64,000 bases of DNA. Origin: Acidimicrobiaceae bacterium. GTDB taxonomy: Bacteria > Actinomycetota > Acidimicrobiia > Actinomarinales > Actinomarinaceae. The stretch lies in NCBI GenBank assembly GCA_028404505.1, contig JAOOBM010000004.1, positions 552 through 64,551 on the forward strand. Reading direction: 5' to 3'. Positions 22,901-64,000 of this stretch are shown here, one piece after another. Position 1 is the first letter of the stretch, and each line of letters opens with the position of its first letter. The position numbers were made by a program, and so were the translations under genes. The notes below the pieces were generated by a model, which saw only the letters and a program-made list of their open reading frames with translations, ran no database searches and was not told the DNA's origin.

Positions 22901-23578
22901 ATGGAAAATAATAAAGATATCCATGCACTTGAATCAATTGATGAACTGGATAATTATAATAACTACATATATAGAAAAATATTAAGACACATACAAACTG
23001 GAACAAATTTAGATTTTGGATGTGGGTTTGGAAATTTTTTAAAATTTGTAAAGAGTGAGACTAATTTAAGTTTTGAAGGTTATGAAGTTAATAGTACTGC
23101 AATAGAAAAGCTTAGAAAAGAAAATATTCCATATGTCGAAAACATTAAGAATTCAAAAAAATATGACAATATTGTTTCTATAAATGTTTTAGAACACATC
23201 GAGAATGATACAAAGATTTTAAAAGAGTTAAGTAAGATTATAAAACCAGGTGGCAAGCTAATATTGTATTTGCCACACTCTATGATTCTTTGGACAAAGT
23301 TAGATAGTTTGGTTGACCACCATAGAAGATATACTAAAAAAGACTTGTTTGAAAAGCTTAAGAAAAGTAATTTTGAAATAGATTCTGTTGAGTATGTTGA
23401 TTTTATTGGTTCGTTAGTTCTTATAATTTTTAAAATTTTAAGAATCAATCCTAACTACAGTAAAAATCGTTTAATTTTTTATGATCGTTTAGTGTTTAAA
23501 ATTTTTAAATTTCTTGATATATTTACAAGAAAAATTTTTGGAAAAAATATTTTAGTTGTTGCAAATGCCAAAACGTAA
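22901..23578 (+). CDS. class I SAM-dependent methyltransferase
   Basis: 225 aa with motif I LDFGCGFGNF, VSINVLEHI and post-motif II KPGGKLILYLP. Confidence 0.75.
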   Translation: MENNKDIHALESIDELDNYNNYIYRKILRHIQTGTNLDFGCGFGNFLKFVKSETNLSFEGYEVNSTAIEKLRKENIPYVENIKNSKKYDNIVSINVLEHIENDTKILKELSKIIKPGGKLILYLPHSMILWTKLDSLVDHHRRYTKKDLFEKLKKSNFEIDSVEYVDFIGSLVLIIFKILRINPNYSKNRLIFYDRLVFKIFKFLDIFTRKIFGKNILVVANAKT

Positions 23579-24263
23579 AGACATAACACTCACAGCAATA
23601 GTGCCTGTATTTAATGAAGAATTATTTTTAAGAAAATCCATAAAAAGACTATTAAATGAGAATGTTGTTGATGAGATCTTTATTATAGATGACTGTTCGA
23701 CAGATGGATCGAATCAAATTATTGACGAACTAACTAAAGAATACAATTCAATAAAAAAATTTCAAACAAGTCATAACATGGGTAAGGGGGGTGCAATTAA
23801 AATGATTCAAAATTCAGTTAATACAAGTTACTCTATAATTCATGATGCAGATCTTGAATACTTTCCAAAAGATATTAAATATTTACTATCTGAAGTAGAT
23901 CAAGATAAGCCAACTTTTGTTATAGGGTCAAGATTTATTAATAATATTGAACCTCAAAATTATTACAGAACTTATTTTGCTAATAAATTTCTATCTTTTT
24001 TATTTTCATTTATACATAGAAGAAAAGTTACTGATATTGCCACATGTTACAAATTATTTCCAAATGAGTATTTTAGGAATACAATTTTAGAATCCAATGG
24101 TTTCGAAATTGAAGTTGAACTCGTTGCTAAATATTTAAAAAAATTCAAAAATATTAAAGAGGTAGGAATAGATTACGAATCAAGGACCTACGAGGAAGGT
24201 AAAAAAATCAAAACTCTTGATTTCTTTAGATATATATATGCAATATTGAAATATAGATTCTAA
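23556..24263 (+). CDS. GT2-family glycosyltransferase (short, soluble)
   Basis: 235 aa with LTAIVPVFNEELFLRKSI, IFIIDDCSTDGS and HDADLEY (DxD). Confidence 0.8.
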   Translation: MLQMPKRKDITLTAIVPVFNEELFLRKSIKRLLNENVVDEIFIIDDCSTDGSNQIIDELTKEYNSIKKFQTSHNMGKGGAIKMIQNSVNTSYSIIHDADLEYFPKDIKYLLSEVDQDKPTFVIGSRFINNIEPQNYYRTYFANKFLSFLFSFIHRRKVTDIATCYKLFPNEYFRNTILESNGFEIEVELVAKYLKKFKNIKEVGIDYESRTYEEGKKIKTLDFFRYIYAILKYRF

Positions 24264-24304
24264 GTTCGATTTAAAAATTTGATTAATACTTTTATACTTA
24301 TTTA

Positions 24305-25012
24305 ATGATTTCAAAAACAATTTATCAGACTTGGAGTACTCAAACTTTACCTGATAAGCTTGAAAAGCTTCATAACAAAATGAGACTTAAAAATTCTTCG
24401 TATGAGCATATAATTTATACGGACAGTCAAATGAATGACTATATAAATGCTAACGCTGATAAAGATATCAAAGATATTTATTGGAAAATGAAACATATTG
24501 TTGCAAGAGCTGATATTTGGCGATATACGATTTTATTCAATAATGGTGGTGTTTATCTTGATATAGATTCTCAGATAAATAATTCATTAGATGATTTGAT
24601 CCAAGATAACGATAGAGCAATTATCACACCAGAAATTCATGAAAACTTATTCATACAATGGGGGCTTATTTTTGAAAATAATCATATTATTCTTGAAAAA
24701 ACTCTTAACAATATTCTTGAAGATGTAAACAATGGTATAAATAGAAACGATCATCATGCTTTGACTGTTAAAAATTATGCAAAAGCTATTTTTGATGTTG
24801 CCAATGAAAACAATTTAGAATTTGAGTGGATTCATCCAGAAGAGCAGATAGATAAAACATATGAGTTTAAAAATTCTTCCTTCAAAATTGTTGGTAATGA
24901 TTACAACAGTCACTTCTCTTTTAAGCATAAATTTAATCATTTATTAAGAAACCGTCCAAAAGGTACTGTAGCTAGCACCCATTGGACACAACATGAAGGG
25001 TCAATTTACTAA
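24305..25012 (+). CDS. GT32-like glycosyltransferase (OCH1 / DXD sugar-binding region type)
   Basis: 235 aa. ISKTIYQTW at the N-terminus and RADIWRYTILFNNGGVYLDIDS match the conserved GT32 motifs. Confidence 0.6.
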   Translation: MISKTIYQTWSTQTLPDKLEKLHNKMRLKNSSYEHIIYTDSQMNDYINANADKDIKDIYWKMKHIVARADIWRYTILFNNGGVYLDIDSQINNSLDDLIQDNDRAIITPEIHENLFIQWGLIFENNHIILEKTLNNILEDVNNGINRNDHHALTVKNYAKAIFDVANENNLEFEWIHPEEQIDKTYEFKNSSFKIVGNDYNSHFSFKHKFNHLLRNRPKGTVASTHWTQHEGSIY

Positions 25013-25033
25013 TTTCAAACTTCCACCCTTAAA

Positions 25034-26395
25034 CTATTTTGCTGTCAGATGGTTTATTTTGTAAGCAAGATCAATAAAATAAATATTTATGAATGAGAAC
25101 AAATATCTATAAGCAGAGCCAAGTTCTACATTTTTCCAAATTGAAATATAAAGATAAAAAACTAATAAAGAGTTTAAAATAATAGTTGAATTTAGAATGT
25201 TGAAGTTTTTATAATATCCTTTGGTAAAAATAAAAATAAATAAATAAAAACATAAAAATAGTGTTAAAACTCTATCGATAAAGATTTGTTCTTTAAAAAT
25301 TAGAATTATATTCATAATGTTAAAATTGGTTAATTGACTAAAGTTTTCAAATAGAATTTGTAGATAAAAATTTTCTGATAAAAAATTATCTTCATTTTTA
25401 ATATTAAGTGATAACACACGACTATAAATGTTATTAATCATAAATCCAATTAAAGGTAGAAATACAATATACGGTTTTCTAAATTTATAAAATAAATAAA
25501 TTGGAACAATAAAAAATATAAATGAAGAAAAAGGTTTTAAAAAATATAAAAAGCCCAATATAAGAAAATATAATTTATTATTTATAATATTTTTATCTTG
25601 GAAAGCAATAATAAGAAAAACACTAAATAGATAATTTACAACTACCTCTCCCATTAATGAATTTATAAACAAATAACTCAACCAATCGCTATTCAAAATT
25701 ATTGGTAAATAGGTTAAAACTAATATTGATTTTGTAAAATTTGATATTTTTAGCTCTAACAATAATAATAAATTTAAATATAAAAATATATTTGGAATTG
25801 CCTGATTAAAAATAAACATATCACCGCTAAAAAATATAAAATGAATTTTTGCGTAAATAAAATTTATCATTAACGAATATCCAGGGATAATGTTATCTTT
25901 TGTGGCAATTGATAAGTTGGTATCATAGATTTTTTCAGTCATTGGCAGCCAGAACTCTGTTACATCGCTGTTGTACTGAATATAAGTTGGATTAAAGATA
26001 TCAATGTTCATCAAAATTAATCTGATTACTATCAATGACGTTAGGAAAATTAAAATATTTTTATAATTTCTACCTTTGATGAATAAGATAAATAATAAGC
26101 AAATGTTGTAAACCAGAGTTGTTTCTTTAAAATTTAACAATGATCCTAAAACTGGAAGTACAGCAAAATTAATTATGAAAGCCCCCATAAAATAATAAGT
26201 TATTGCCAACGAAATTGAATTTAGATTAAAAACTGAGCTAATTTCTTTACCTAGAAGATAAATAAAAATAAAGCATAAAAATGATACAAATAAACTATCT
26301 AAATTTAGATGTTTCAGATTCATTACATTCAAAAAAAAGTTTATTAAAAATGGAATAGGAATTAGGAAAAAATAAATTTTAGAAATTTTAATCAT
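25034..26395 (-). CDS. large polytopic membrane protein, GT-C-like candidate
   Basis: 453 aa, more than 10 TM segments. Its start overlaps the stop of the upstream GT2 gene by 8 nt. Late motif GSAYRYLFSF. Confidence 0.4.
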   Translation of the reverse strand: MIKISKIYFFLIPIPFLINFFLNVMNLKHLNLDSLFVSFLCFIFIYLLGKEISSVFNLNSISLAITYYFMGAFIINFAVLPVLGSLLNFKETTLVYNICLLFILFIKGRNYKNILIFLTSLIVIRLILMNIDIFNPTYIQYNSDVTEFWLPMTEKIYDTNLSIATKDNIIPGYSLMINFIYAKIHFIFFSGDMFIFNQAIPNIFLYLNLLLLLELKISNFTKSILVLTYLPIILNSDWLSYLFINSLMGEVVVNYLFSVFLIIAFQDKNIINNKLYFLILGFLYFLKPFSSFIFFIVPIYLFYKFRKPYIVFLPLIGFMINNIYSRVLSLNIKNEDNFLSENFYLQILFENFSQLTNFNIMNIILIFKEQIFIDRVLTLFLCFYLFIFIFTKGYYKNFNILNSTIILNSLLVFYLYISIWKNVELGSAYRYLFSFINIYFIDLAYKINHLTAK

Positions 26396-27239
26396 TTAGA
26401 AAATTAATTACTTCAATTAATCCATATAAAACAACACAGATAATTATATAATTTAAATCAATTAAATCATTATTTAATATTTTGATAAATGTCAAAATAT
26501 TTAACAATAAGAATATCAGGCTCCCCATAGAAAGATTGTGACGTGTATTTAAATAATTTTTAAGATATAAAAGTTTTAAAAAAACTGGAATTAATTTTAT
26601 TGAACCTATAAAAATTGGTATGCTGCTTTTTTCTTCACCATAAATTGTTTTGATGGGTACTTCAGAAATTTTGAATTTAAATATAACTAAGTTAAGAAGT
26701 AACGAATTCTCAAAAAAATAATCATTCCTAAGATATTTGAATTGAATACGGTCAAAAATACTTGCTTTGAATGCAATAAATCCGTTGTTTGGATCTGAAA
26801 CACTAAAATTTCCTGTTACGATTTTTTGTAAATTGGTAGATATAAGATTACCAAGAATTTTAACTGCTGGCATTTGAGAAATTGACGACTTAAATCTATT
26901 TCCTTTTATAAAGTCATAATTTTCTTTTTCAATCAAATTTATAAACTCAGGAATATCATTTGAGGAATGCTGTCCATCCCCGTCAAATTTTATAATAATT
27001 TCTGCACCAATTTCTAAAGCTTTTTTGATACCAACTTTTGTTGCACCTCCAATTCCTAAGTTTTTTTCATTTGTCACAATTATTAAATTATCATTATTTA
27101 TTGACTCTAAAATTTCTTTTGATCCATCGGTTGAACAATCATTAACTACGATTATTTTGTCACAGTGATTAAATACTTTATTAATTATGTCAAAAATTGA
27201 TTTTTCTTCATTAAAAACTGGTATTACAACAACTTTCAC
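26388..27239 (-). CDS. GT2-family glycosyltransferase with C-terminal TM helices (polyprenyl-phosphate sugar synthase-like)
   Basis: 283 aa with VVVIPVFNEEKSI, IIVVNDCSTDGS, FDGDGQH and two C-terminal hydrophobic helices. Confidence 0.8.
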   Translation of the reverse strand: MKVVVIPVFNEEKSIFDIINKVFNHCDKIIVVNDCSTDGSKEILESINNDNLIIVTNEKNLGIGGATKVGIKKALEIGAEIIIKFDGDGQHSSNDIPEFINLIEKENYDFIKGNRFKSSISQMPAVKILGNLISTNLQKIVTGNFSVSDPNNGFIAFKASIFDRIQFKYLRNDYFFENSLLLNLVIFKFKISEVPIKTIYGEEKSSIPIFIGSIKLIPVFLKLLYLKNYLNTRHNLSMGSLIFLLLNILTFIKILNNDLIDLNYIIICVVLYGLIEVINFLND

Positions 27240-27273
27240 AACCTAATTATAAGTAAATATCAAGTTTTAAAAT

Positions 27274-28623
27274 TCAATTATCTTTTTTTTGGAAATTAGT
27301 TGTGGATTGTTTGAATACAAACATTAGAAAAGTTAAAAAAGATATTACAGTTAGGACATTTATTTGGGGGCTATCTAGTGCTGTGTTGTAAGGTTCAAGG
27401 TAATATATTGAAAAGTTGTAAAATAAAAGTGAAAATATAAGAGTTATATCTTTTCTAAAAGTAAATACATATACAATACAAGAAAAGAAGAAGAAATAGC
27501 CAATACTATAATTTACAAACCTAAATGGCTCATACAAACCCTGCAAAGACCAAAATATGAATATAACAAAATTTATGTATAGTGATAATTTAATTATTTT
27601 TGGAATGTCTATCTTTAAGTAGTTTATAAGGACTGTCATACAGAAAAAGTAAAAAATTAAAATTGAAAAATATCCAATATAGCTAAAAGTAACAACATTA
27701 TTGCATTTTAAAAATGTCGATAAAGTTTGACAATTGGCTGAATTTTCAGGATCAAATGCTGAAAGTATCCAATAAAATTGATTATAAACATCGCGATTCC
27801 AATCAAAATAATCATACGGACTAAGGTAAATAATAAATCTATAAAAACTTTGAAAACCTAGAAGAAATATTAAATTAAGAAATACATCTTTGAACTGAAT
27901 CTTTTTTTGATTTATAAATATGTAAAATAATATTATCAATCCGTAAATTATCGATGAAAGATGAGCAAGAGAAAATAATCCATAAAGTAAAAAAATATTG
28001 GTTGTATCTTTTTTTTGAAAATTACCTCTCATTAAATAATCTAAAGAGATTAAAAATAATAAAAAAGGTAAATTTCCAACAGAAGCAAGAAAAATGTTCC
28101 ATCTTAAGCTTGGTATGCTAATTAATAATAAAATTAATAAATATTCTCTATTATCAAAAGACTTAATTTTCATAAGAGAGATAAAGATTTTTATAATCAA
28201 AAAAATAATTGACACTTGGACAATAAGCATTGATAGCTTATAAATCTCATAGCTTGAAAGGTTTAAAAAATTAACAAAGCTAAATAGATTATTGAATGAT
28301 GATAAGATCAAAATGAATAAAGGCCTACCTTGATAAGGGTTTGTTTCATTAAAAAAGTTGTCGATTGAAGTTATGGCAAATTGATATGGTCCTTCATCAC
28401 AATGTATTGGTAAACGAATGTTATTTAGGTTGTATATTTTAAAATCTTTAATAATTTCAACACACCAGAACTGTTGGTTATAGTAATTTTCAAGAAAATA
28501 AAAGTCTATAAAATACACAACTACAATTGAGAAAAATGTAATCGTTAATACTTTTAAATTATTTTTCATAATAAGAGGTATATGTAGATTATAACCTACA
28601 ATGTTATTGAACAATAAAAGCAA
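27274..28623 (-). CDS. large polytopic membrane protein, paralogue of 57108..58463 (GT-C-like candidate)
   Basis: 449 aa from TTG at 28623; the ATG at 28569 (MKNNLKVLTI...) is the more likely start. Motifs shared with 57108..58463: CDEGPY, YQGRPLF, NCQTLSTFLKC, SLQGLYEPFRFVNYSIG. Confidence 0.45.
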   Translation of the reverse strand: MLLLFNNIVGYNLHIPLIMKNNLKVLTITFFSIVVVYFIDFYFLENYYNQQFWCVEIIKDFKIYNLNNIRLPIHCDEGPYQFAITSIDNFFNETNPYQGRPLFILILSSFNNLFSFVNFLNLSSYEIYKLSMLIVQVSIIFLIIKIFISLMKIKSFDNREYLLILLLISIPSLRWNIFLASVGNLPFLLFLISLDYLMRGNFQKKDTTNIFLLYGLFSLAHLSSIIYGLIILFYIFINQKKIQFKDVFLNLIFLLGFQSFYRFIIYLSPYDYFDWNRDVYNQFYWILSAFDPENSANCQTLSTFLKCNNVVTFSYIGYFSILIFYFFCMTVLINYLKIDIPKIIKLSLYINFVIFIFWSLQGLYEPFRFVNYSIGYFFFFSCIVYVFTFRKDITLIFSLLFYNFSIYYLEPYNTALDSPQINVLTVISFLTFLMFVFKQSTTNFQKKDN

Positions 28624-28703: not shown

Positions 28704-30371
28704 ATGAAAAAAATAATTACAAGATTGATACAAAGCCCTTTTGATATTATTTATAGGTTAATTTTTTATTTTATTTTTTATTTTTCTTCTATTGTTATTA
28801 CATTAACTTACAGTGTTATTAATTCTCCAGATTTTGCAAAGTATTACAGATATTTTGAATTTTACTCTGGAAATATAGACAATCTAAATTTAGAGCAGGG
28901 TCATTTTTACTTTTTCATAAATTATTTATTAGTATTAGTTTTTTCAAACTCTATGGAGTATTTAACTTTAAATGAGATTGTCAATTTTTCTGTTCATCTA
29001 GGTAACTCTTTTATATTTCTAGTTGGCTGCTTAGGAATGAAAAAGTACCTATCAAGATATTTCAATTTAAATAATATCTATCTCGTTTTGTCACTTTTGT
29101 GCTTGCTTCCAACATCTTTTGAGTTAAGAGTTACTCTCAAACCTGAGATATTAGCTTTTTCATGCATAGGTTGGTTGCTATATTATCTTGATGAAATATC
29201 AGATGAAAATAGTACTGGAATCAACATAATTAAATTCTCTATTATCTTTAGTATTTTGGTTACTTCAAAAATTTCAATAGGGTTTATGGTTGGTTTATTT
29301 ATTTTGTTAGAAATTTTTTATAACAAAAGGGGTTTAATAAAAAAAATTAACACAAAAAGGGTTTTAATTGTTTTAGGGTTAATCGTAATTTTATTAACAG
29401 AAAATTTTGCTTTAAATAACAGATTTATAACTCAGGTCGAACATGAAGAAAAATATAATAATCAAGCAGATGTTGAATTTTTTGTAAATTTTCCGACAAA
29501 AGATTTAAGAGACAATCCAAATAAGTATTTTTTTTCTGAGTCATTTCTTGGCATAACATTGTTCGATTCATTCAATGATTTTTTTGGTTTTTATGGAAAT
29601 TCTGAACATACATTTCTGAATAAAGATAGAAAAAAATTTTTTAAGGTTGTTTTTGCAAATAGTGAAATATTTCCAGTCAAATTAAGATTTGATAAAGTAC
29701 AAAAAGAATTTACATTTTCTGGACCTTACGATAGGGGCTGGAACGAGAGTAATTATATAGATGAGACAAGAATGCTTTTTAGTTTTGCTTTTTCCTCAAT
29801 CTTTTATTTTTTACTTTTATTATTTATCTTATTCAAACGAAAACTAAGAATTATAATGTTTACACCGTTTCTAGGAATCTTAATTATCTCTATTTCTGCA
29901 CTTGGTTTTCTTGGAACAAATAATTTTGATCCAAATACGGGAGATAGTTTTAAGTCTTTTTATTATAGTTTTTTCATTCTGTTAGCATTTGTAATTCTTT
30001 TTTTAGAAATATTTAAATACAATATTTTTAAGAAAACGCTGTCAATATTTTTAGGTATATTGTTTCTATTTTTCTTAGGTTTTCCCTTTGCATTCGATCA
30101 GGCAAACCAAGAATTCTTAGTTTATTGGAACTCATATTTTCCAACATGTGAACTTAATAGATTTGCTACTGATTTTCTTTTAAATATAAATTTAGAAGCA
30201 TATTGTGATACTAGTTTTGAGAGTAAAAACTTAATTAGTTCAGAATCTGAAATAGGAAATCTAGATTTTAGTCTCTATAAAGTTCCTTATTTTAATATTT
30301 TGTTTATGTTTTCATTTTTTGCATTGCTTGTACCTAAAGTTAAAAGCATTATTGAAGAAAAAATAATATGA
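28704..30371 (+). CDS. large polytopic membrane protein (GT-C-like candidate)
   Basis: 555 aa with many TM segments and a central soluble loop of about 110 aa. First gene of a three-gene operon with ATGA overlaps at 30368 and 30706. Confidence 0.4.
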   Translation: MKKIITRLIQSPFDIIYRLIFYFIFYFSSIVITLTYSVINSPDFAKYYRYFEFYSGNIDNLNLEQGHFYFFINYLLVLVFSNSMEYLTLNEIVNFSVHLGNSFIFLVGCLGMKKYLSRYFNLNNIYLVLSLLCLLPTSFELRVTLKPEILAFSCIGWLLYYLDEISDENSTGINIIKFSIIFSILVTSKISIGFMVGLFILLEIFYNKRGLIKKINTKRVLIVLGLIVILLTENFALNNRFITQVEHEEKYNNQADVEFFVNFPTKDLRDNPNKYFFSESFLGITLFDSFNDFFGFYGNSEHTFLNKDRKKFFKVVFANSEIFPVKLRFDKVQKEFTFSGPYDRGWNESNYIDETRMLFSFAFSSIFYFLLLLFILFKRKLRIIMFTPFLGILIISISALGFLGTNNFDPNTGDSFKSFYYSFFILLAFVILFLEIFKYNIFKKTLSIFLGILFLFFLGFPFAFDQANQEFLVYWNSYFPTCELNRFATDFLLNINLEAYCDTSFESKNLISSESEIGNLDFSLYKVPYFNILFMFSFFALLVPKVKSIIEEKII

Positions 30372-30709
30372 CGAAAAAGAATCTTAATCAAATTTCTGAT
30401 GATGAAATCATAAATATATGTGGAGAATACCCCGATGGTTTTGTAGTAGCCGATATTTTGAGTGATCCAAACTTTGTTTTTACAGTGGATGAAAATTATG
30501 AAACTGTTAAATTGTTTGATGTCGATGGAAATTCAGTTTTTGTAAATTCATTTACTGAATGCCATCATTATGTAAATGGTGGGTGGAATTTTACCTCTAC
30601 AGAATTAAATGAAAGTACACTTCATAATTATTTATCAATTTTTTCAATTTTGTTATTTTCAGTTGGCTACCTCTTTATAAAAAAATTTTTTATTGGAACT
30701 GAAAAATGA
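30368..30709 (+). CDS. small tail-anchored protein, unknown function
   Basis: 113 aa with an acidic soluble N-terminal domain and a single C-terminal TM helix (LSIFSILLFSVGYLFI). Start and stop both overlap neighbours as ATGA. Confidence 0.55.
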   Translation: MTKKNLNQISDDEIINICGEYPDGFVVADILSDPNFVFTVDENYETVKLFDVDGNSVFVNSFTECHHYVNGGWNFTSTELNESTLHNYLSIFSILLFSVGYLFIKKFFIGTEK

Positions 30710-35194: not shown

Positions 35195-35225
35195 ATTAAT
35201 TTAAAATATTTCATAACAAAAAACT

Positions 35226-37936: not shown

Positions 37937-37957
37937 ATTAAATTAACCTTAGTATTT

Positions 37958-39043: not shown

Positions 39044-39045
39044 TT

Positions 39046-39906: not shown

Positions 39907-39984
39907 AATTCATTCAATTATAACTGTAACCCAACAATTCAATTAAAGACTATAAAATAAATTTGATAAATATAATATATAGCT

Positions 39985-41103: not shown

Positions 41104-41110
41104 ATAGCTT

Positions 41111-42916: not shown

Positions 42917-43027
42917 AATTAAATGTTAATTTGATTTAAATGTAAAAACTAAATTTTATTTTTTAATTTTGTAATTAAAAATTTTATAATTAAATAGTTT
43001 TATAACTTAAAATTAAAATGAGCGTAT

Positions 43028-49435: not shown

Positions 49436-49474
49436 CTATAAAATAATGATATATATCCATTTAAACTAGCTTAT

Positions 49475-55967: not shown

Positions 55968-56018
55968 TAGTTAAAAATGTACATTTAACCTTTTTATCTT
56001 TTTGATTTAAAATACAGT

Positions 56019-57107
56019 ATGAAAGTTTCTCTTTTTGACACAAAAGTAAATGAAAGTGAAGAAATTACAAAGCTATTCAAAAAGTTATTGAAAAACGGTC
56101 AATATGTTCTTGGTAATAATGTAAGCAGCTTCGAATCAAGTCTTGGATCCTACTTAAACAGTAAGTATGTAGTCGGTGTAAATTCTGGAACTGATGCAAT
56201 TGAATTATCACTCAAAGCTCTTGGGATCAAAAAAGGAGATTATGTAATTACTTCTGGATTCACATATTTTGCAACAATTGAGGCTGTGCATAATGTAGGC
56301 GCAATACCTCACATCGTTGATATTGATATAGAAACGCTACAAATTAATTTAGACTCTATTGAGAAAAAATTCTTAAATAAAGCGAAATTTATAATTCCAG
56401 TTCATTTGTTTGGTGGATACGCTGATATTCCAAAATTAATGGAACTTTCGAAAAATTATGAACTAAAAATAATAGAGGATGTAGCTCAGTCTTTTGGTAC
56501 AAAATATAAAGATAAACACCTTGGTACTTTTGGTGATGCAGGAGCATTTTCATTTTATCCAACTAAAACCTTAGGATCAATTGGTGATGCTGGAGCAATA
56601 ACAACAAATAACAAATCTGTTTATGAGGATCTCTTGATGCTAAGAAATCATGGTCATATAGATAGAGATAACTTTAAATTTGCTGGAAGAAATTCGCGTT
56701 TAGATGAAATTCAAGCAATGTTCTTAAACCTTAGACTTAAAAATATAGATGAAGAAATTAAAAAAAGAGTTGAGATTGCAAACATTTATATGAATTCTTT
56801 AGACAGTATTAGCAATATCACTTTTTACAATTCAGTCTTAGAAACATTCAATTATTTCCCTATCACTGTGCAAAATCTTAAAGAGAGAGACGATTTAGTA
56901 AATCATTTAAATTCAAGAGATATAGACACTGCTATTTATTACAGAAAACCATTAAGTGATTTAACGTTTGATTGGATAAGTAAAAGTTCGAATTTTACAA
57001 ACATTAACTTTGTAAAAGATAGAATTTTATGTCTTCCATTATATCCATCATTAAAAATGAATAAATTAAAATATACGATAAATACAATTAAGTCATTTTA
57101 TAAATAA
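56019..57107 (+). CDS. DegT/DnrJ/EryC1/StrS-family PLP-dependent sugar aminotransferase
   Basis: 362 aa with NSGTDAIELSLKALG, IIPVHLFGG, IIEDVAQSFG, FSFYPTKTLGSIGDAGAITT (PLP Lys) and LRNHG. Confidence 0.85.
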   Translation: MKVSLFDTKVNESEEITKLFKKLLKNGQYVLGNNVSSFESSLGSYLNSKYVVGVNSGTDAIELSLKALGIKKGDYVITSGFTYFATIEAVHNVGAIPHIVDIDIETLQINLDSIEKKFLNKAKFIIPVHLFGGYADIPKLMELSKNYELKIIEDVAQSFGTKYKDKHLGTFGDAGAFSFYPTKTLGSIGDAGAITTNNKSVYEDLLMLRNHGHIDRDNFKFAGRNSRLDEIQAMFLNLRLKNIDEEIKKRVEIANIYMNSLDSISNITFYNSVLETFNYFPITVQNLKERDDLVNHLNSRDIDTAIYYRKPLSDLTFDWISKSSNFTNINFVKDRILCLPLYPSLKMNKLKYTINTIKSFYK

Positions 57108-58463
57108 TCAATTATCGACAGTATATTTATTTCTTTTCGTAAAAAAATCGTAGATGAATATACAAATAATTGTAATTATTAGTAACGAATCAATTAAATT
57201 TAAATCTAACGTATATTCTTGGAAATTATTTCTTGAAAGTGTATAGGTTGCAGTAGCAATAACAGACAATATAGAAAGTAATTCTGAATCGATTTTTACA
57301 AGAAAAAGACAAGTTAATAAAATTACACCGAAACCGATACTGTAGTACACAAATCTGTATACATAAAAACCTTGTAAAGAGATGAAAATATAATTGAAAA
57401 TTGTGAAGCTTAATATGATGGAAAAACTTCTATAGTTAAATTTCTTTAGTCTTATCAAAGTAAAAAAGAAAAGTAATAGACATAAAGAAATATAAAATAA
57501 AGAAATAGAAAAATATGTAAGAGTTATATCAAAATAACATGGAATAAACTCTGTCAAAGTATGACAATTTTGAAATGGCTCATAGGATCTATTAAACAAT
57601 GTTTGAATAAACCAAACGAATTGTTGATACTCTTCTGCTTCTGCTGCGTGTATATACTTTACACCATATTCTTTACCTTGGAAAAACCCTAATAGAACTC
57701 TTATCAATTCAAAACCTATATACGGTATTAAAAATAAAATTATGTTTTTGATTATTGTTTTAACACTTTTTTTTCGTTTATATATCGTAGTTAATAATTC
57801 ATACAAAAATCCAATTATTCCATACGCTGAAATTGTAAATAACAAACCATACATAAAACCACTTAATTTTTTATTTTTTATGGAGTAAATTGAAAATGCA
57901 AATATTAATAAATAGGTTGTTGAATTTGTTGGTAAGAATAAATAAAGCCGATATTCAAAACTAAAAATGACAAGCAATAAAAATATAAGAAAATAGAATC
58001 TATCAAAATTTGCTTTTAGTGTCTTACAAATTACATATGCAATTAGATTGACGATTATTATTTGTAAAATTAATGAAGATAGTAATAACAGCGAAATTGG
58101 TTCAATTAGAAACCCAAACAATAAAGAAAAGATAAAGAAGAATCTGTAGATTATAAAACCAATACCTAAATATAAAGGCCTGTCTTGGTAAACATAACCA
58201 TTCTCATAAATGTGATTAATCCATTGAAATCCATGAAAATAGAAAGATTCATCACACATTTCTGGGTATGGAATGGAAATAAAATTATTAAATAAATTAA
58301 AATCTCTAAATACCACATTCGTACAGCCTTCATAGTTAAATAAATTTTTATAACTCAAATAAACTGCAATTATTTCGAAAATTAAAATAAGAAAAATATA
58401 AAATTTAAAATTTATATTGTTTAAAAATGATTGAAATGACAGTTTGTTTGTTTTCGTAAACAT
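57108..58463 (-). CDS. large polytopic membrane protein, paralogue of 27274..28623 (GT-C-like candidate)
   Basis: 451 aa with CDESFY, YQDRPLY, NCHTLTEFIPC and SLQGFYVYRFVYYSIG, in the same order and spacing as in 27274..28623. Confidence 0.45.
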   Translation of the reverse strand: MFTKTNKLSFQSFLNNINFKFYIFLILIFEIIAVYLSYKNLFNYEGCTNVVFRDFNLFNNFISIPYPEMCDESFYFHGFQWINHIYENGYVYQDRPLYLGIGFIIYRFFFIFSLLFGFLIEPISLLLLSSLILQIIIVNLIAYVICKTLKANFDRFYFLIFLLLVIFSFEYRLYLFLPTNSTTYLLIFAFSIYSIKNKKLSGFMYGLLFTISAYGIIGFLYELLTTIYKRKKSVKTIIKNIILFLIPYIGFELIRVLLGFFQGKEYGVKYIHAAEAEEYQQFVWFIQTLFNRSYEPFQNCHTLTEFIPCYFDITLTYFSISLFYISLCLLLFFFTLIRLKKFNYRSFSIILSFTIFNYIFISLQGFYVYRFVYYSIGFGVILLTCLFLVKIDSELLSILSVIATATYTLSRNNFQEYTLDLNLIDSLLIITIICIFIYDFFTKRNKYTVDN

Positions 58464-58488
58464 AAATTAGTTGTTATCTTATGTTGAA

Positions 58489-58974
58489 TTACTTTCTATA
58501 GTCTTTCGACTTTACTTGTGCTGGATTGCCATAAACTAATGAATTAGGTTGAACATCTTTTGTAACAACACTTCCAGCTCCTACAAGTGAATACTCACCA
58601 ATTATTATGCCAGGTAGAATTGTTGAATTAGCTCCGAGTGAAACATGATCTTCAATTTCTGTTTTTAAAACCATATCGTCTGACCATTTTTCAGAAATCG
58701 GATACATATCATTTGTAAAAACAACACTAGGACCAACAAATACATTTCTTCCTATCTTTACACCTTTGTATAAAGAAACATTGTTTTGAATTTTGGTGTT
58801 ATCACCAATTACAACACCTTCATCTATATATACATTTTGACCAATGGTTACATTTTCTCCTATTTCAACGTTTTCTCTAATATGAGAAAAATGCCATATT
58901 TTTGTTCCACTTTTTATCGTACAAGAGTCAGAAACTTCAGAACTTTTATGAATAAAGACAGATTCATCAATCAT
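58489..58974 (-). CDS. left-handed beta-helix (hexapeptide) sugar N-acetyltransferase, WbpD/QdtC-like
   Basis: 161 aa with IHKSSEVSDSCTIKSGTKIWHFSHIRENVEIGENVTIGQNVYI hexapeptide repeats and a GANSTILPG..IGEYSLVGAGSVV tail. Confidence 0.8.
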   Translation of the reverse strand: MIDESVFIHKSSEVSDSCTIKSGTKIWHFSHIRENVEIGENVTIGQNVYIDEGVVIGDNTKIQNNVSLYKGVKIGRNVFVGPSVVFTNDMYPISEKWSDDMVLKTEIEDHVSLGANSTILPGIIIGEYSLVGAGSVVTKDVQPNSLVYGNPAQVKSKDYRK

Positions 58975-59029
58975 TAAACTGATTTTACCCTAGAACAAAT
59001 TGTATTTTACTGGAAAAAGGCCTTATTTA

Positions 59030-60499
59030 TTATGATTTTTGTATTGGTGCTGTCCTGCCTGTTGATGCTTCTTCGTGGTAATCTTCTTCTACATTAATTG
59101 TCCAAATATCATTTTTTTCATTCAATATAATATTTCTTACACTTTTTACTGCTGTCATCATTGAATGATCTTGGTTGTTATATCTGTGCATGCCGTTTCT
59201 TCCAATCGGAAAAATATTTGGATGATCTTGATTTATCCATTCAGATATATTGTTGACATTTTCTGAATAATTTAAATCATAAACAGGGTAAGCTTTTGGC
59301 ATTCTTACAACATAGCCTTCATAAACAGAATCTTTGTTGATTAAAGATAGTTTCTCTAATTCATTTTTTGCAAGTTTAATTAATTCTTCGTCTTCCATTG
59401 TCCAAAGTCTATCGCCGATATTTACAAAATATTCGAGACCAAGACATGTCTTTCCTTCTTTAACCATATAAGGAGACCAACTTCCATAATTTTGAACCCT
59501 ACCAACTTCGACATCAGGCTCATGAATATAAATCCAATTATCTGGAAAGGCGTTTTTTTCATCAATTACTAGAGCAACTGATAAAAAATCTCTAAAAGCT
59601 AAGTCAGATCCAGATTTGTTTACTTCTTGATTAGGTTCAGGTTTTATTGTCGAAGGTAAATGTGCCAAAGGCATACTACTTAAAATATTTTTTGCATAAA
59701 AGCTTTCTCCGTTTTTGGTAGTTACTTTATAAATATCATCTTCTTTAATAATTTCAGAAACTCTACAATTGAAATATATATTATGACCTTTATCAATGAG
59801 TTTTTTTGAGGCAGTTTCCCACATCATTCCAGGCCCAAACTTAGGATATTTAAATTCGTTAATAAGAGTAGTTATTATTTCTCCAGATTTATTTAGTTTA
59901 AGTGAATCTAGAATAGCTTTTAACAATGATAAGTTTTTTATCCTTTGGGCAGCCCAGTCAGCACCAATATCTTTTGCATCTATTCCCCATACTTTTTCAG
60001 TATAAGTCTTAAAAAAGATGTTGTACAAACGCCATCCAAACCTTGCGGCAACCCAGTTTTCAAAATTGCTTTGATCCTTTGGGGGTTTGATTCTAACGTA
60101 AAAATATGAAATTACACATCGAATAGCCTCAAAAATACCAAGGTTTAATAGTGCGTTAGATGCCTTTAGCGGATAATCGTAAAATTTTTTATTATAGTAA
60201 ATTCTGCTCATTCTAGGCCTTAATAAAAAATCATCCTCGCCTAATATTTCATCCCATATTTCGTATACCTCTTCTACCTTGGTAAAAAAGCGGTGACCTC
60301 CAATGTCAAATTTCCAACCATTACGTTCAACTGTTCTACTTATGCCACCAACAACCTTGTCACCCTCAAGAATTGTTGTTTTTATTCCGTGTTTGTCTGC
60401 TTCCCATGCTGCAGTAAGTCCTGCTGGACCTGCTCCAATAATAAGTATTTCTTCAATTTTCATTTTTTTTGAATATATTTGATTCGTTTGTAATTTCAT
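59030..60499 (-). CDS. FAD-dependent oxidoreductase (amine-oxidase / protoporphyrinogen-oxidase-like fold) of polysaccharide clusters
   Basis: 489 aa with dinucleotide motif ILIIGAGPAGLTAAWEADKHGIKTTILEGDKVVGG. Likely start M13 (60463, MKIEEILIIG). Confidence 0.65.
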   Translation of the reverse strand: MKLQTNQIYSKKMKIEEILIIGAGPAGLTAAWEADKHGIKTTILEGDKVVGGISRTVERNGWKFDIGGHRFFTKVEEVYEIWDEILGEDDFLLRPRMSRIYYNKKFYDYPLKASNALLNLGIFEAIRCVISYFYVRIKPPKDQSNFENWVAARFGWRLYNIFFKTYTEKVWGIDAKDIGADWAAQRIKNLSLLKAILDSLKLNKSGEIITTLINEFKYPKFGPGMMWETASKKLIDKGHNIYFNCRVSEIIKEDDIYKVTTKNGESFYAKNILSSMPLAHLPSTIKPEPNQEVNKSGSDLAFRDFLSVALVIDEKNAFPDNWIYIHEPDVEVGRVQNYGSWSPYMVKEGKTCLGLEYFVNIGDRLWTMEDEELIKLAKNELEKLSLINKDSVYEGYVVRMPKAYPVYDLNYSENVNNISEWINQDHPNIFPIGRNGMHRYNNQDHSMMTAVKSVRNIILNEKNDIWTINVEEDYHEEASTGRTAPIQKS

Positions 60500-60618: not shown

Positions 60619-61509
60619 ATGAATTTAAAAATTGCCATAATCGCGTTAACAAGGGGTTACCCCAATAACAAATCAAAATACGATACCTTAATTAAAAGAA
60701 ATCATGGAATTTATGAAAGAATAAATAAACTTCGAGATATTCCAGCTGATTTAATACTCTTCCATGAAGATGACTTATCAATAGAAGATCAAAAATATAT
60801 TCAAGAAAATAGTCCTGAAAAAATTAAATATATAAACGTATCAAAATATTTCAAATATGAAACTCTTAAATTAGAAGGTGAGGAAAAATTTAATCTTGGC
60901 TATAGACAAATGTGCCGATTTCATATGTTTCATATATGGAATGAAGTAAATAATTATGACTACATATTAAGAGTTGATGAAGATATTGAAATATCAGATT
61001 TTGATCCTTATATCTTTGAGTTAATGAATTTAAAAAAAATTACATATTTAACTGGAAGATTCACAAAAGACACGCATAGACTTACTAACCAAACTTTACC
61101 TCCTTTTTTAATTGAAAACACAAATTTAAATGTAAAACTTATATACAACCACAGGAATCCTTACACAAATTTATATGCTTCATCAGTCGATTTTTGGAGA
61201 CAAGAAGATATTCAGTATTTAATAAAGAAAATTGCAAAATCTGACCTTCAACTTATCAATCGATGGGGCGACCACACTGTTCAAGGAATTATATTAAATC
61301 ATAAGAAAGAAAGAATTAGACTTTTTCCTAAATTAGAATATAGACATATTTCCCATAGCCTTGTAATTAAAAATAACTTTCTAAGAAATATGACAATAAA
61401 CTCAAGACTTAATCCAGTATCTGTATCTGGTGGGGTGTTGAATCGGATAAAACAAAGAATTAAAGGTAGTTTAAAAAATAAAAATAAATTTGATTTTGAT
61501 AGAAACTAA
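60619..61509 (+). CDS. GT15-like (Kre2/Mnt1-type) putative glycosyltransferase
   Basis: 296 aa, no TM segment. KIAIIALTRG..., LILFHEDDLSIEDQ and GYRQMCRFHMFHIWNEVNNYDYILRVDEDIEISDFDP parallel, as recalled from memory, the fungal alpha-1,2-mannosyltransferase motifs (LVRN / FLND.pF / YRHMCRF...YD.YWRVEPD). Confidence 0.45.
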   Translation: MNLKIAIIALTRGYPNNKSKYDTLIKRNHGIYERINKLRDIPADLILFHEDDLSIEDQKYIQENSPEKIKYINVSKYFKYETLKLEGEEKFNLGYRQMCRFHMFHIWNEVNNYDYILRVDEDIEISDFDPYIFELMNLKKITYLTGRFTKDTHRLTNQTLPPFLIENTNLNVKLIYNHRNPYTNLYASSVDFWRQEDIQYLIKKIAKSDLQLINRWGDHTVQGIILNHKKERIRLFPKLEYRHISHSLVIKNNFLRNMTINSRLNPVSVSGGVLNRIKQRIKGSLKNKNKFDFDRN

Positions 61510-61520
61510 ATAATAAATAT

Positions 61521-62555
61521 TTAAGAAATTATATTCTGTACAATACTTGTTACTACCTCATCTTTGCCATATAAGAGGTCCGAATTTTTTATGTTTGAAA
61601 TTAATTTTGATTCACCATTTATTAATTTAATTGATTCATCCGTTACATTCTTAGGCGTTGGAGTGAGTAAATTAAATTTTTCAAGCATTTCAGGTCTCTC
61701 CGTATAGTTTCTTGGGATTAATAGAGGTTTTCTTAATATTGAGGCTTCTTCTTGAACACCCCCTGAGTCTGAAATAATAAATTTAGAATGATTTATTAAG
61801 TTTAAAAAACTTTCATAATCTTGAGGATCAATAAATGAGATATTTTCATAATTATTTTCTTCTGAGTTAATCATTTTTTTTGTTCTTGGATGGATCGGGA
61901 ATATCGTAAAAAAATTAAGAGAATTAATAGCTTCCATAAGTGAATTTAATCTATCTTTATCATCTACATTTTCAGGTCTATGAAGTGTTAAAAGAATATA
62001 TTCTTTATCGTTAATTTTTTCTTTATCTAAATCTATCTGCATGACCGATGAATATACTGTACTTCCAGTAACAATAATTTTTTGGGGGTTTATATTTTCT
62101 TTGATTAAGTTGTCCTTGTTTAGATTATGGTTACAAAAATTTATATCAGCAAGATGAGATACTATTACCCGATTGTATTCTTCTATCTGTCCAACATCAT
62201 ATGACCTCATTCCAGACTCGATATAATAAAGAAATTTATTTTGCAATTTAGAAGCAACTGCTCCAGCTAAGGTCGTGTTTGTATCTCCTTGTACAACTAC
62301 TTTTTCGATAACTGTTTCTTTCAATACTGATTGAATTTTTTTTGACATATCTTTTGTATGATCAAAAATTCCCTTCTGGTCAAAATTTAAATTTATAAAC
62401 TCGTCACATTTAATCAAATTAAAAAAATCATCCGACATATTTTTGTCGTAATGCTGTCCTGTGAAAATTACAACAGCATTCATTGAATTAATAACTGGTG
62501 CGAGTTTTATTAATTCTGGCCTTGTGCCTGCAACAAATGCAATTCTATCTTGCAT
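61521..62555 (-). CDS. UDP-N-acetylglucosamine 2-epimerase family protein
   Basis: 344 aa with IAFVAGTRPELIKLAPVI, VVQGDTNTTLAGAVAS, ESGMRSYD, LTLHRPENVD and ISDSGGVQEEASILRKPLL. Confidence 0.8.
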   Translation of the reverse strand: MQDRIAFVAGTRPELIKLAPVINSMNAVVIFTGQHYDKNMSDDFFNLIKCDEFINLNFDQKGIFDHTKDMSKKIQSVLKETVIEKVVVQGDTNTTLAGAVASKLQNKFLYYIESGMRSYDVGQIEEYNRVIVSHLADINFCNHNLNKDNLIKENINPQKIIVTGSTVYSSVMQIDLDKEKINDKEYILLTLHRPENVDDKDRLNSLMEAINSLNFFTIFPIHPRTKKMINSEENNYENISFIDPQDYESFLNLINHSKFIISDSGGVQEEASILRKPLLIPRNYTERPEMLEKFNLLTPTPKNVTDESIKLINGESKLISNIKNSDLLYGKDEVVTSIVQNIIS

Positions 62556-63261
62556 ACTTATATGCTACAAAGTGAAATATATATTTGATATGATCAATTA
62601 TATTGCTATAAATATCAAGTTTTGACACTCCATAAAGCCTTGTTGATAATGTACATGGAAAATCTATTCCATTGTTGGTGATTAACATACATTTAGTGAA
62701 TAATTCAGTAACTGCAATAAAATTTTTTCTGGTAATTGGAATTTTCTTTATTATTTCTGTTTTGTAAATTTTACATATTGAGCTAGTTGTGTAAAAATCT
62801 TTTCCCGAAATAATTCTATACACACGATTTACAGATTTACTCAGAAAAAGTCTTATCTTTCCTACTCCTACAACTATTCCTTTCGGATGATACGGTGAAG
62901 CGTTTACAACTGAAAAACCATCCATTGATAAATCATACATTTCATTTAAAAGGGTTGGATTGTAGGTACAGTCACTATCAAGAAATGCTATAAAATCTCT
63001 TTGGCAATCTTTAATTGAGGTCTTAAGAAATCCCCCAAGATTTTTATTTTCAGAATGAGAAATTACTCTGTAAAGTTTTTTATTAAATTTTTTGTTCAGT
63101 AACTCTAATGTATTATCTTTACTTCCATCGTCAATAAGAATTATTTCATAATTGCATTTGTCTTTCAGCAGTAATTCCAGCTTTGCTAATTCTGACTCTA
63201 AATGGTCAATACCTTCTTCTTCATTATAAAGAGGTATGTAGATTCCAAGAGAATTTTTCAT
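62545..63261 (-). CDS. GT2-family glycosyltransferase (short)
   Basis: 238 aa with LGIYIPLYNEEEGI, IILIDDGSKDNT and FLDSDCT. Confidence 0.8.
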   Translation of the reverse strand: MKNSLGIYIPLYNEEEGIDHLESELAKLELLLKDKCNYEIILIDDGSKDNTLELLNKKFNKKLYRVISHSENKNLGGFLKTSIKDCQRDFIAFLDSDCTYNPTLLNEMYDLSMDGFSVVNASPYHPKGIVVGVGKIRLFLSKSVNRVYRIISGKDFYTTSSICKIYKTEIIKKIPITRKNFIAVTELFTKCMLITNNGIDFPCTLSTRLYGVSKLDIYSNIIDHIKYIFHFVAYKYAR

Positions 63262-63322
63262 TCTTAAATATTATAGATGATACATGTAAGTTTGATTGCT
63301 ACTATTTAAATGTGATGTACAA

Positions 63323-64000
63323 GTGAAGACCTTTCAAAGAGTTAATACTTTTTTTCAAGGTTTTACTGCAAAATATTTGTACCTAATAAATGTTGGGTTA
63401 ATTATATTTCTATTATCACCATTATTTTTATTTTTAAATAACCAACTTTCTCAAGATCAAATTTTTATAGAGAATACTTCTATAGATGTCATTGTTGAAG
63501 GTTGTGGGATTAATTTACCTCAAAATGAAATCTATAGTATTGAAGAGACCTTATTTCCAAGAGATATTTATGTTTTTCCACAAATTAGTAACCTAGAGTG
63601 CCTAGGAGTTCCAAATAAAATAATTTATTCAACGGATGGTGATAAATTATCTGCAAATCTTGAAGTAGGTTCAAACTATAAATTATTTAAATATATAAAT
63701 TTAGTTGGAAATTATATTTTGATTTTTCTTGTAATAATAAATTTAAGAAAATACATTCCTCACATAATTTTGCTTTATTTGTTATTTAATTTTGGAATTT
63801 ACAAGTTGCTTATACCGATAGAACCAATAAGTGAGATAATTCTTCCAATTGCTCCATTTGAAATAGGTGATCAATATGTGAGGTTTTTTGTAAATAATTT
63901 ATTTTTAATAGTGCTTTCTTTAAAGGTAAACAAAAATAATATCTATTTACTTCTTTTTATTTATTTTGTATTTATTTCAATTGACTATCTTGGGATATTT
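63323..64000 (+). CDS. polytopic membrane protein, N-terminal part (3' end outside window)
   Basis: The frame is open from the TGA at 63293-63295 to the window end, with GTG at 63323 (or TTG at 63296) as the only candidate starts. It encodes VKTFQRVNTFFQGFTAKYLYLINVGLIIFLLSPLFLF..., i.e. a TM helix, a Cys-containing loop of about 100 aa, then more TM helices. The layout resembles ORF 30706..32646. Confidence 0.5.
   Translation, partial: MKTFQRVNTFFQGFTAKYLYLINVGLIIFLLSPLFLFLNNQLSQDQIFIENTSIDVIVEGCGINLPQNEIYSIEETLFPRDIYVFPQISNLECLGVPNKIIYSTDGDKLSANLEVGSNYKLFKYINLVGNYILIFLVIINLRKYIPHIILLYLLFNFGIYKLLIPIEPISEIILPIAPFEIGDQYVRFFVNNLFLIVLSLKVNKNNIYLLLFIYFVFISIDYLGIF

Follow-up and report, generated by a model that had tools for sequence, protein, structure and literature searches.

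The window analysed here is a stretch of 64,000 nucleotides deposited as Acidimicrobiaceae bacterium (GCA_028404505.1, contig JAOOBM010000004.1, positions 552 to 64,551 of the forward strand), which harbors a long glycosylation island of glycosyltransferases (GTs) and large polytopic membrane proteins. Its host is Candidatus Actinomarina, the name given to the OCS155 marine actinobacteria: the class II (B12) ribonucleotide reductase (RNR; 7829-11221, plus strand; Pfam Ribonuc_red_lgC 1e-130) is 96-98% identical to that of Ca. Actinomarina single-amplified genomes (SAGs), and all close loci, referred to below by L numbers, come from the genus Actinomarina. The span is most of the 'glycotype' island fGI1, already published. 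According to the sections of that account considered here, fGI1 is a single flexible island found in the same place throughout the order Ca. Actinomarinales, with 43-79 kb, ~28% GC and a role in "sugar decoration of the envelope"; its content varies even within species, its insertion hot spots are tRNA genes, at which partial tRNA direct repeats are left behind, and the cell wall of the order is unknown, an outer membrane being unlikely according to the authors (López-Pérez et al. 2020, PMC7771536).

The window contains ~57 open reading frames (ORFs) of at least 100 amino acids (aa), named below by their first coordinate, and nearly no non-coding DNA. GC content is 33-39% in the first 11 kb and 22-31% thereafter, with a patch of 33-36% at 17-21 kb. 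Upstream of RNR, gene conservation among Actinomarina genomes amounts to 67-98%, while downstream of it the content is unrelated in L001-L003, L013, L015 and L051, even where RNR itself is 96-98% identical. Since synteny is conserved up to this core gene, which marks the left border, and lost after it, the island starts directly behind RNR at ~11.25 kb, where the GC drops, and not at 22.9 kb, as placed by a preliminary description made from the letters of the DNA. That description had also proposed a flexible island, in agreement with the differing contents of the Actinomarina relatives and with the published fGI1, as far as the sections considered here go, and at least 10 alternating-strand blocks, of which 15 are counted between 22.9 and 64 kb. 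Concerning the right border, the conserved genes in relatives are an HhH-GPD gene, a phosphoglycosyltransferase (PGT) and an MPAB-domain gene. Contig L085, syntenic with the window from 52 to 64 kb at 65-99% identity, carries the HhH-GPD marker ~5.5 kb beyond the start of its 63323 ortholog, and the island probably continues several kb past the window end. The distance from RNR to the PGT in relatives is 50-80 kb, to be compared with the 43-79 kb published for fGI1. A Formyl_trans_N protein present in L085 and L087 was considered as a further core border marker and dropped, being absent from the PGT loci of five SAGs; it may be a sugar formyltransferase.

Eight large polytopic ORFs had been recognised before (15864, 25034, 27274, 28704, 30706, 44998, 57108 and 63323), and all of them indeed show ~9-13 hydrophobic segments, but a ninth one, 12143, had been missed. 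In six of the eight, the first transmembrane (TM) segment, TM1, is followed by a loop of 58-85 aa. Apart from 44998, the eight have no Pfam match even at E <= 10 and none in NCBIfam. A comparison of nine polytopic families by hhalign yielded no pair with a probability above 31%, so that sequence offers no basis for merging or classifying them; searching the PDB sequences with profiles of the 27274, 15864, 25034 and 30706 families returned no meaningful match.

The clearest structural assignment is that of 27274 (27274-28623, minus strand), whose family comprises 104 homolog clusters at 90% identity, which all originate from marine metagenomes or SAGs and lack Pfam domains, and is confined to Actinomarina among species-representative genomes. 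The AlphaFold2 (AF2) model (predicted local distance difference test, pLDDT, 87.5; predicted template-modelling score, pTM, 0.90) was compared with the PDB by Foldseek, and the top 12 matches are all GT-C fold proteins (ALG12, PglB, ArnT, ALG3, AglB, AftB, ALG6, PimE and PIG-U), with probabilities mostly of 0.8-1.0 (0.47 for the twelfth), template-modelling scores of 0.29-0.48 and no transporter near the top. The first extracytoplasmic loop of the family has the invariant pattern C57 D58 (E59) Y62 ... Y79 Q80 x R82 P83, in which the acidic residues following TM1 are an invariant D58 and an E59 conserved in at least 90% of the sequences. Its paralog 57108 (57108-58463, minus strand; BLASTP 1.6e-9, 28% identity over 349 aa) carries the same loop-1 motif, CDE..Y...YQxRPL. 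On the basis of this model we accept the 27274 family as a new GT-C family at the fold level, to which 57108 is assigned by homology; the fold, modelled for 27274 and extended to 57108, thus accounts for two of the eight polytopic ORFs.

The second component of the putative transmembrane glycosylation units is a set of GT2 enzymes. Four of the five GT2s resemble polyprenyl-phosphate sugar synthases (PpgS, AglJ, ArnC, GtrB, DPMS). 23556 (23556-24263, plus strand) is small, soluble and polyprenyl/dolichyl-phosphate hexose synthase-like, matching NCBIfam AglJ over residues 13-221 (2.7e-28) and, as its best PDB match, ArnC (8e-6). 26388 (26388-27239, minus strand) shows the C-terminal TM helices of the GtrB/ArnC/PpgS architecture and aligns along its entire length with PpgS, the polyprenyl-P-GalNAc synthase of mycobacteria (NCBIfam, 1e-24), with further matches to DPhHxTase, AglJ and ArnC in NCBIfam and to ArnC in the PDB (1.6e-6). 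12996 (12996-13955, minus strand) has two C-terminal TM helices (Pfam GT2 1e-18; weak NCBIfam matches to PpgS, 6e-9, and AglJ), and 62545 (62545-63261, minus strand), small and divergently oriented from 63323, is GtrB/DPMS/ArnC-like, with PDB matches to GtrB (5ekp, 3e-13, residues 5-124) and DPMS (5mlz, 3.7e-13, residues 5-233) and NCBIfam matches to PgfS and ArnC. 50442 is unlike the other four, matching the NCBIfam entries EpsE/TuaG/WcaA, which are ordinary cytoplasmic GT2s.

These synthase-like enzymes are linked to the polytopic genes both in the window and in its relatives. 27274, 26388 and 25034 form a single minus-strand run, with an 8-nt overlap between 26388 and 25034; this pair recurs together with a triad 28704-30368-30706 (SAG AG-422-C10, 37-58% identity; L083, triad at 49-58%). 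In AG-470-F09 a GT2 gene like 23556 extends into the start of a 27274-like GT-C gene, in L084 and L085 the 62545-type GT2 is always divergent from the 63323 ortholog, a 15864-type gene adjoins a GT2 in L002, L015 and L137, and GT2-polytopic pairs are conserved in L081, L083, L085 and L137. Over 23 Actinomarina loci, which are related to each other, a polytopic gene is the immediate neighbour of 13 of 24 PpgS/GtrB-like GT2s versus 37 of 332 other ORFs (odds ratio 9.4, Fisher p = 1.4e-6). The modules of a GT2 plus a GT-C transferase suggested in the preliminary description are therefore borne out as recurring pairs of synthase-like GT2s and polytopic proteins, the GT-C fold itself being established for 27274 and 57108 only.

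One of these units would include a candidate for moving the lipid-linked sugar across the membrane. In L137 a GT2 (39% identical to 12996) is followed by a 15864-type protein (44%) and by a 313-aa protein that passes the cut-off of TIGR00374 "flippase-like domain" and carries PF03706. The ninth polytopic ORF of the window, 12143 (12143-13006, minus strand), has 7 TM segments and is tentatively MprF-type flippase-like (LPG_synthase_TM/TIGR00374), with a Pfam LPG_synthase_TM (PF03706) match of E=0.028, its L015 ortholog reaching 1.3e-4; both values fall short of the cut-off. Compared directly by BLASTP, 12143 and the L137 protein show no significant similarity; 12143 is probably the window equivalent of that third gene, and 12996, 12143 and 15864 seem to make up a complete three-component unit, in which 12143 would be the MprF-type flippase-like protein. 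No GtrA, SMR, Wzx or MATE domain of a dedicated flippase was found in the window, nor any small GtrA-like polytopic ORF, for which the almost fully coding window leaves no room, and the weakly LPG_synthase_TM-like 12143 is thus the only flippase candidate for the GT2/GT-C units there. In known systems of this layout the flippase gene often lies elsewhere; Lactococcus and Bacillus have three GT-A/GT-C pairs per genome and a flippase encoded elsewhere (PMC8035078; PMC11127046).

Concerning the remaining polytopic orphans, 25034 (25034-26395, minus strand) represents 82 homolog clusters, none with a Pfam domain, and its AF2 model (pLDDT 87.8) is weakly GT-C-like: the top 4 Foldseek matches are STT3 (E 1.8-3, probability 0.23-0.35, template-modelling score 0.34-0.38), followed by ALG3 and ALG9, which is only suggestive of a GT-C. 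15864 (15864-17444, plus strand), the candidate GT-C of the three-component unit, has an 85-aa first loop and at least 230 homolog clusters at 90% identity, again none with a Pfam domain, and it shows no sequence link to the PDB or to the 27274 family; in 40 sequences of its family the motif D36 D37 xx Y40, directly behind TM1, does not vary. 28704 (28704-30371, plus strand) has ~11 TM segments, a 58-aa first loop and a 118-aa central loop. Of 63323 (63323-64000, plus strand) the window holds the N-terminal 226 aa, in a protein of ~10 TM segments with an 82-aa first loop, whose full length of 657 aa is known from the orthologs in L084 (97%) and L085 (65%); it has no relative in species-representative genomes, and L084-L086 were obtained from metagenome contigs.

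15864, 25034 and 63323 are probably GT-C enzymes, and 28704 perhaps. The alternative is that the polytopic ORFs beyond 27274, 57108 and the two Wzy_C proteins described below are transporters, acyltransferases or something else, in a polysaccharide locus of the ordinary kind that has one or two units for side-chain modification. The marginal GT-C matches of 25034 and the lack of detectable homology of 15864, 28704 and 63323 to anything annotated speak for it, but the layout of TM1 plus a long loop, the invariant DD motif of 15864, the template-modelling scores of only ~0.1-0.2 that 25034 reaches outside the GT-C class, and the consistent adjacency of the orphan families to PpgS/GtrB-like GT2s, once also to a flippase-like gene, make it rather unlikely. 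Other polytopic proteins occur in the same island type. In L137 (17467-20906) two adjacent ~550-aa proteins with Pfam DUF8201, of another family with no BLAST similarity to any window protein, adjoin a conserved FAD oxidoreductase, and in L087 (19985-21305) a bona fide PMT_2 (GT-C) protein lies downstream of a GT2, so that recognised GT-C families also circulate in these islands.

Two further polytopic proteins fall into the Wzy_C superfamily of O-antigen ligases and polymerases. 44998 (44998-46335, minus strand) is a Wzy_C protein, putatively a polymerase or ligase (Pfam Wzy_C 2.5e-13, above the cut-off), with a 101-aa late loop, and 30706 (30706-32646, plus strand) is a divergent one of O-antigen ligase/polymerase-like, GT-C_B type, recognised through its family (271 representatives at 50% identity), of which 14 of 40 aligned members match Pfam Wzy_C (best 1.8e-6) and which shows the ligase-like conserved motifs WRG..PSAE, NRSELWG and LFGxGP...LLPHSS. 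Family membership is equally consistent with a polymerase, a ligase or an O-oligosaccharyltransferase role for both. A 113-aa single-TM protein (30368-30709, plus strand) always directly precedes the 30706-type gene, in the window as well as in L083, L087, L090 and L119; in several genomes this pair lies just outside the island, adjoining the PGT and MPAB genes. Wzy_C/WaaL types use lipid-PP-oligosaccharide donors, GT-C_A enzymes lipid-P-monosaccharides (PMC10920833), and by this donor logic the two Wzy_C proteins imply a PGT-initiated pathway.

A candidate assembly and export line lies next to 44998. The minus-strand block 46310-53897 encodes an ABC half-transporter (52275-53897), a GT4, the EpsE/TuaG/WcaA-like GT2, two further GT4s and a 372-aa protein, with a plus-strand Gmd-like gene (49475-50449) placed after GT2 50442; it ends beside the Wzy_C gene, and the order ABC-GT4-GT2-GT4-GT4-unknown is the same in L138 at 37-57% identity. 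As had been stated before, this is the single exporter: the sole ABC protein of the window is a fused ABC_membrane + ABC_tran half-transporter, CydD/MsbA/HepA/PglK-like in NCBIfam (PglK 1e-25), and no ABC-2 type permease with a separate ATPase (Wzm/Wzt, TagGH) is present in the window. PGT (PF02397, PF00953), Polysacc_synt (Wzx) and Wzz domains are likewise absent by Pfam from the window ORFs of at least 100 aa, in line with the earlier failure to recognise any of the three. No Wzx was found in the window or the Pfam-annotated relatives L087, L137 and L138, and no Wzz was seen in the window or such relatives.

An initiating PGT is found at the island edge of relatives. A 480-aa PF02397 (Bac_transf) protein lies there on a 77-kb scaffold carrying a 27274 homolog and is conserved in ~35 Actinomarina genomes at 51-64% identity to this query, with the HhH-GPD gene before it and the MPAB-domain gene after it. 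It is ~50, 58, 60.6, 60.7 and 80 kb away from RNR on the five contigs that carry both. From this spacing and from the position of HhH-GPD in L085, the PGT is expected ~6-13 kb past the window end. The preliminary description had named a canonical set of wzx, wzz and PGT genes just outside the window as evidence that would speak against it; judging from the relatives, the PGT is probably there, while neither Wzx nor Wzz was seen anywhere examined. PGTs of the Actinomarina type (56-61% identity to the query) also appear in metagenome-assembled genomes labeled as Candidatus Pelagibacter, Gammaproteobacteria and Alphaproteobacteria (L094, L104, L105, L108); these identities fall in the range of true Actinomarina genomes, and the probable reason is binning contamination.

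As for the soluble enzymes, Pfam supports the earlier calls almost one for one. In addition to all five GT2s, it recovers the six Glycos_transf_1 (GT4-like) enzymes (37958, 39985, 47425, 48500, 51136 and, upstream of the island, 4996), GT8 (37013), GT25 (36251) and the GT32-like Gly_transf_sug protein with its DXD domain (24305). The GT15-like transferase at 60619, encoded together with a UDP-GlcNAc 2-epimerase (60619-62555), is confirmed only by a weak match (1e-6). Of two exostosin-like ORFs, 54014 is supported (RXYLT1_C/Exostosin, RXYLT1/GT47-like); the second, probably 35226, has no Pfam match and a C-terminal motif similar by eye. 54014 is followed by a UDP-GlcNAc 2-epimerase-like gene and a DegT aminotransferase (54014-57107, plus strand), all syntenic in L085. 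A stretch of sugar-nucleotide and transferase genes (32651-44978) comprises an epimerase/C-methyltransferase fusion, 35226, the GT25, the GT8, a GT4, an FkbM methyltransferase, a second GT4, AsnB, a GDP-fucose synthase-like protein and a GDP-mannose 4,6-dehydratase. Altogether Pfam finds two UDP-GlcNAc 2-epimerases, methyltransferases and one acyltransferase in the window.

Some of these genes deserve a separate mention. The fusion (32651-35194, minus strand; 847 aa) combines an NAD-dependent epimerase/dehydratase with a zinc-ribbon S-adenosylmethionine C-methyltransferase (Methyltransf_13/14) via a middle region; its probable product is a C-methylated deoxysugar, and L081 has a copy of it, 67% identical, beside RNR. 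Between GT2 12996 and polytopic 15864 lies a gene (13945-15819, minus strand) for a 624-aa glutamine amidotransferase-like sugar-modifying enzyme, with an N-terminal glutamine amidotransferase domain (Pfam GATase_7 7e-8) and an SGGRDSS PP-loop motif, which may be a sugar amidotransferase. On the same strand as 57108 and upstream of it, a hexapeptide acyltransferase and a PRK07208-family FAD oxidoreductase are encoded (58489-60499, minus strand). The latter (59030-60499) scores 721 bits with NCBIfam NF005548, above the cut-off, shows weak similarity to UDP-galactopyranose mutase and is 78-87% conserved, which is unusually high for an island gene; as it adjoins polytopic or GT-C genes in L082, L083, L085 and L137, its substrate might be a sugar or a lipid-linked sugar donor. 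At the left border, a 293-aa soluble protein without Pfam match (11272-12153, plus strand) directly follows RNR, at a position where most relatives carry a 230-aa AglJ-like GT2 instead. On the other side of RNR, always between it and a FemAB-like GNAT + GT4, lies a 247-aa, 8-TM protein with no Pfam or NCBIfam match (6959-7702, minus strand), 55-98% conserved in most Actinomarina genomes examined and 40% in the more divergent metagenome-assembled genome L013; it may be a core envelope gene of unassigned role.

The island further contains a tRNA-Val(TAC) gene (17513-17587, plus strand; ARAGORN; Rfam 73.8 bits), an insertion hot spot occupied by a cassette (17540-20873, plus strand). This is bracketed by a 67-nt direct repeat (17540-17606 and 20807-20873, 1 mismatch) that comprises the 3' part of tRNA-Val and the 19 nt flanking it downstream, the second copy lying 3.27 kb downstream of the tRNA-Val, with 0 matches expected by chance. 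The cassette is 3.2 kb long, has a higher GC (33-36%), and harbors a 56-aa membrane ORF and two lipoprotein genes (17843-19264 and 19358-20794, plus strand) whose products have acidic or S/T-rich linkers and whose orthologs (90-94% identity) lie at different positions in L002, L003 and L051; no integrase is present inside it. It fits the insertion signature described for fGI1 in the sections considered here (PMC7771536). A third lipoprotein follows outside the cassette (20931-22781, plus strand), with an SSTTSSTTTT linker and weak leucine-rich repeat Pfam matches, and is a possible glycosylation acceptor. The adjacent S/T-linker lipoproteins noticed earlier are thus real: each of the three proteins encoded at 17.8-22.8 kb carries a lipobox and, after it, a linker that is acidic or rich in S/T.

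These lipoproteins raise the alternative that the main product is protein O-glycosylation and not a wall polysaccharide, with the Wzy_C proteins as PglL/PilO-like oligosaccharyltransferases and the GT-C enzymes as PMT-like transferases acting on them, which would be compatible with the composite model given below. Besides the presence of three such lipoproteins inside the island and of the PMT_2 protein in the island of a relative (L087), there is precedent in the actinobacterial Ppm1 and PMT, which O-mannosylate such lipoproteins, and in the PglL-type O-oligosaccharyltransferases, which carry Wzy_C. As the main role of the island it is nevertheless unlikely: a search of the window at E <= 10 recovers neither PMT (GT39) nor PMT_2, and the sequence does not reveal the acceptor. 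Moreover, two of the lipoprotein genes sit in a separately inserted, tRNA-flanked cassette that is differently placed in other genomes, so their linkage to the island is loose.

We consider it rather likely that the island is a composite, two-layer envelope-glycan factory. Built on the observed folds, families, gene linkage, island variability and borders, this model proposes substrates, flipping, acceptors and a division of labour as follows. In the first layer the WbaP-type border PGT, outside the window, would prime polyprenyl phosphate; from GDP- and UDP-sugars made by the island, a repeat unit would be assembled by the soluble GT4, GT2 (EpsE-like), GT8, GT25, GT32 and GT47-like enzymes; export of the lipid-linked glycan would fall to the MsbA/PglK-like ABC half-transporter, instead of a Wzx; and the Wzy_C proteins 44998 and 30706 would polymerise it or ligate it to an acceptor. 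The second layer would consist of several parallel multi-component transmembrane glycosylation units, in which the GT2s 12996, 23556, 26388 and 62545 make polyprenyl-P-monosaccharides and GT-C enzymes (27274 and 57108, with the fold as above; probably 15864, 25034 and 63323; perhaps 28704) transfer the sugars on the outer face to the polymer and/or to the S/T-rich lipoproteins, one unit (12996, 12143 and 15864) possibly having its own MprF-type flippase-like protein.

Several points weigh against this model. The Foldseek E-values of 27274 are weak (7e-3 to 0.3, template-modelling scores 0.36-0.48), 25034 matches GT-C proteins only marginally, and 15864, 28704 and 63323 share no detectable sequence similarity with any GT-C. 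All GT2 matches are far below the NCBIfam equivalog cut-offs and hold at the family level only, the adjacency statistic rests on related, non-independent loci and so overstates independence, the flippase-like assignment of 12143 is below threshold, and the PGT is observed in relatives only. The preliminary description had suggested parallel polyprenyl-P-monosaccharide plus GT-C modules rather than a classical pathway; taken strictly, such a locus with no lipid-PP-linked, PGT-initiated, Wzy-type line would suit the absence of PGT, Wzx and Wzz domains from the window, the many GT2/polytopic pairs and the one family with a GT-C fold, but is very unlikely given two Wzy_C-family proteins that imply lipid-PP-oligosaccharide donors, about ten soluble GTs and a conserved ABC exporter operon that fit cytoplasmic assembly, and a conserved Bac_transf PGT flanking the island in all relatives examined.

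The composite model can be compared with several known systems. With the published fGI1 the window shares organism group, chromosomal place, low GC (~25-28%), fitting size, variable content and the tRNA repeat cassette, and there is no difference in kind; in the sections considered here, that island was annotated by KEGG categories, and they contain no analysis of polytopic proteins, GT-C/GT2 pairing, Wzy_C or a flanking PGT (PMC7771536). The GtrA-GtrB-Gtr*, CsbB-GtcA-YfhO and Lactococcus CsdAB/CD/EF systems (PMC8035078, PMC11127046) likewise have a GT2 resembling an undecaprenyl-phosphate (C55-P) sugar synthase next to a polytopic GT-C fold protein, several pairs per genome and GT-Cs nearly without mutual sequence similarity. 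The island differs from them in that no GtrA-, SMR-, MATE- or Wzx-type flippase is present in the window, although one unit may use an MprF-type flippase-like protein; in that three GT2s are short, soluble and devoid of TM helices; in GT-C families lying outside Pfam and NCBIfam; and in its four to five units within one hypervariable island of a ~1.1 Mb genome.

An actinobacterial precedent for polyprenyl-P-sugar synthases feeding GT-C enzymes is given by the mycobacterial PpgS (Rv3631) with the GT-C Rv3779, and by Ppm1 with PMT, PimE, Emb and Aft. 26388 has its best NCBIfam match in PpgS, and the structural matches of 27274 include AftB and PimE; the scores are, however, far below equivalog cut-offs, there are no Emb, Aft, PMT or GT87 domains here, and no mycolic-acid or arabinogalactan context is known for Actinomarina from the literature sections considered. 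Wzx/Wzy loci share the Wzy_C proteins, the many soluble GTs, the sugar-nucleotide genes and, in relatives, a WbaP-type PGT at the locus border, but here there is no Wzx and no Wzz/polysaccharide co-polymerase, an MsbA/PglK-type ABC half-transporter takes the exporter slot, and the host is probably a monoderm without lipopolysaccharide. Campylobacter pgl (PglC PGT, PglK flippase) is similar in its PGT, soluble GTs and fused type-I ABC exporter, which could flip a lipid-PP-oligosaccharide; no STT3/PglB domain is found here, transfer would be by Wzy_C-type enzymes, and CydD, MsbA and HepA outscore PglK.

Candidatus Actinomarina, uncultured and streamlined, ranks with the most abundant actinobacteria of the surface ocean. 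For Gram-positive wall polymers and O-antigen seroconversion, the three-component mechanism is textbook knowledge. Both the island and this mechanism are known already; nothing here is surprising in kind. The new elements are modest: a GT-C family that had no annotation, several large families of orphan polytopic proteins that are linked to GT2s, an MprF-type flippase that may belong to one of these units, and the framing of the island by RNR and a conserved PGT. The 27274/57108, 15864 and 30706 families are candidates for a CAZy-type classification. The analysis provides a testable model, in which a lipid-PP backbone primed by the border PGT would be combined with several GT2/GT-C decoration units. 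A bolder and quite doubtful extension is that the glycotype island owes its diversity mainly to the swapping of cassettes that pair a lipid-P-sugar synthase with an extracytoplasmic transferase; at least five unrelated polytopic families (15864, 25034, 28704, 63323 and others in relatives) would then represent new GT-C families that Pfam and NCBIfam do not contain, or even transferases of a new class acting on lipid-linked sugars, with one type served by an MprF-like flippase. If this were true, such swapping would be the chief source of surface variation in a monoderm whose cell wall is unknown.

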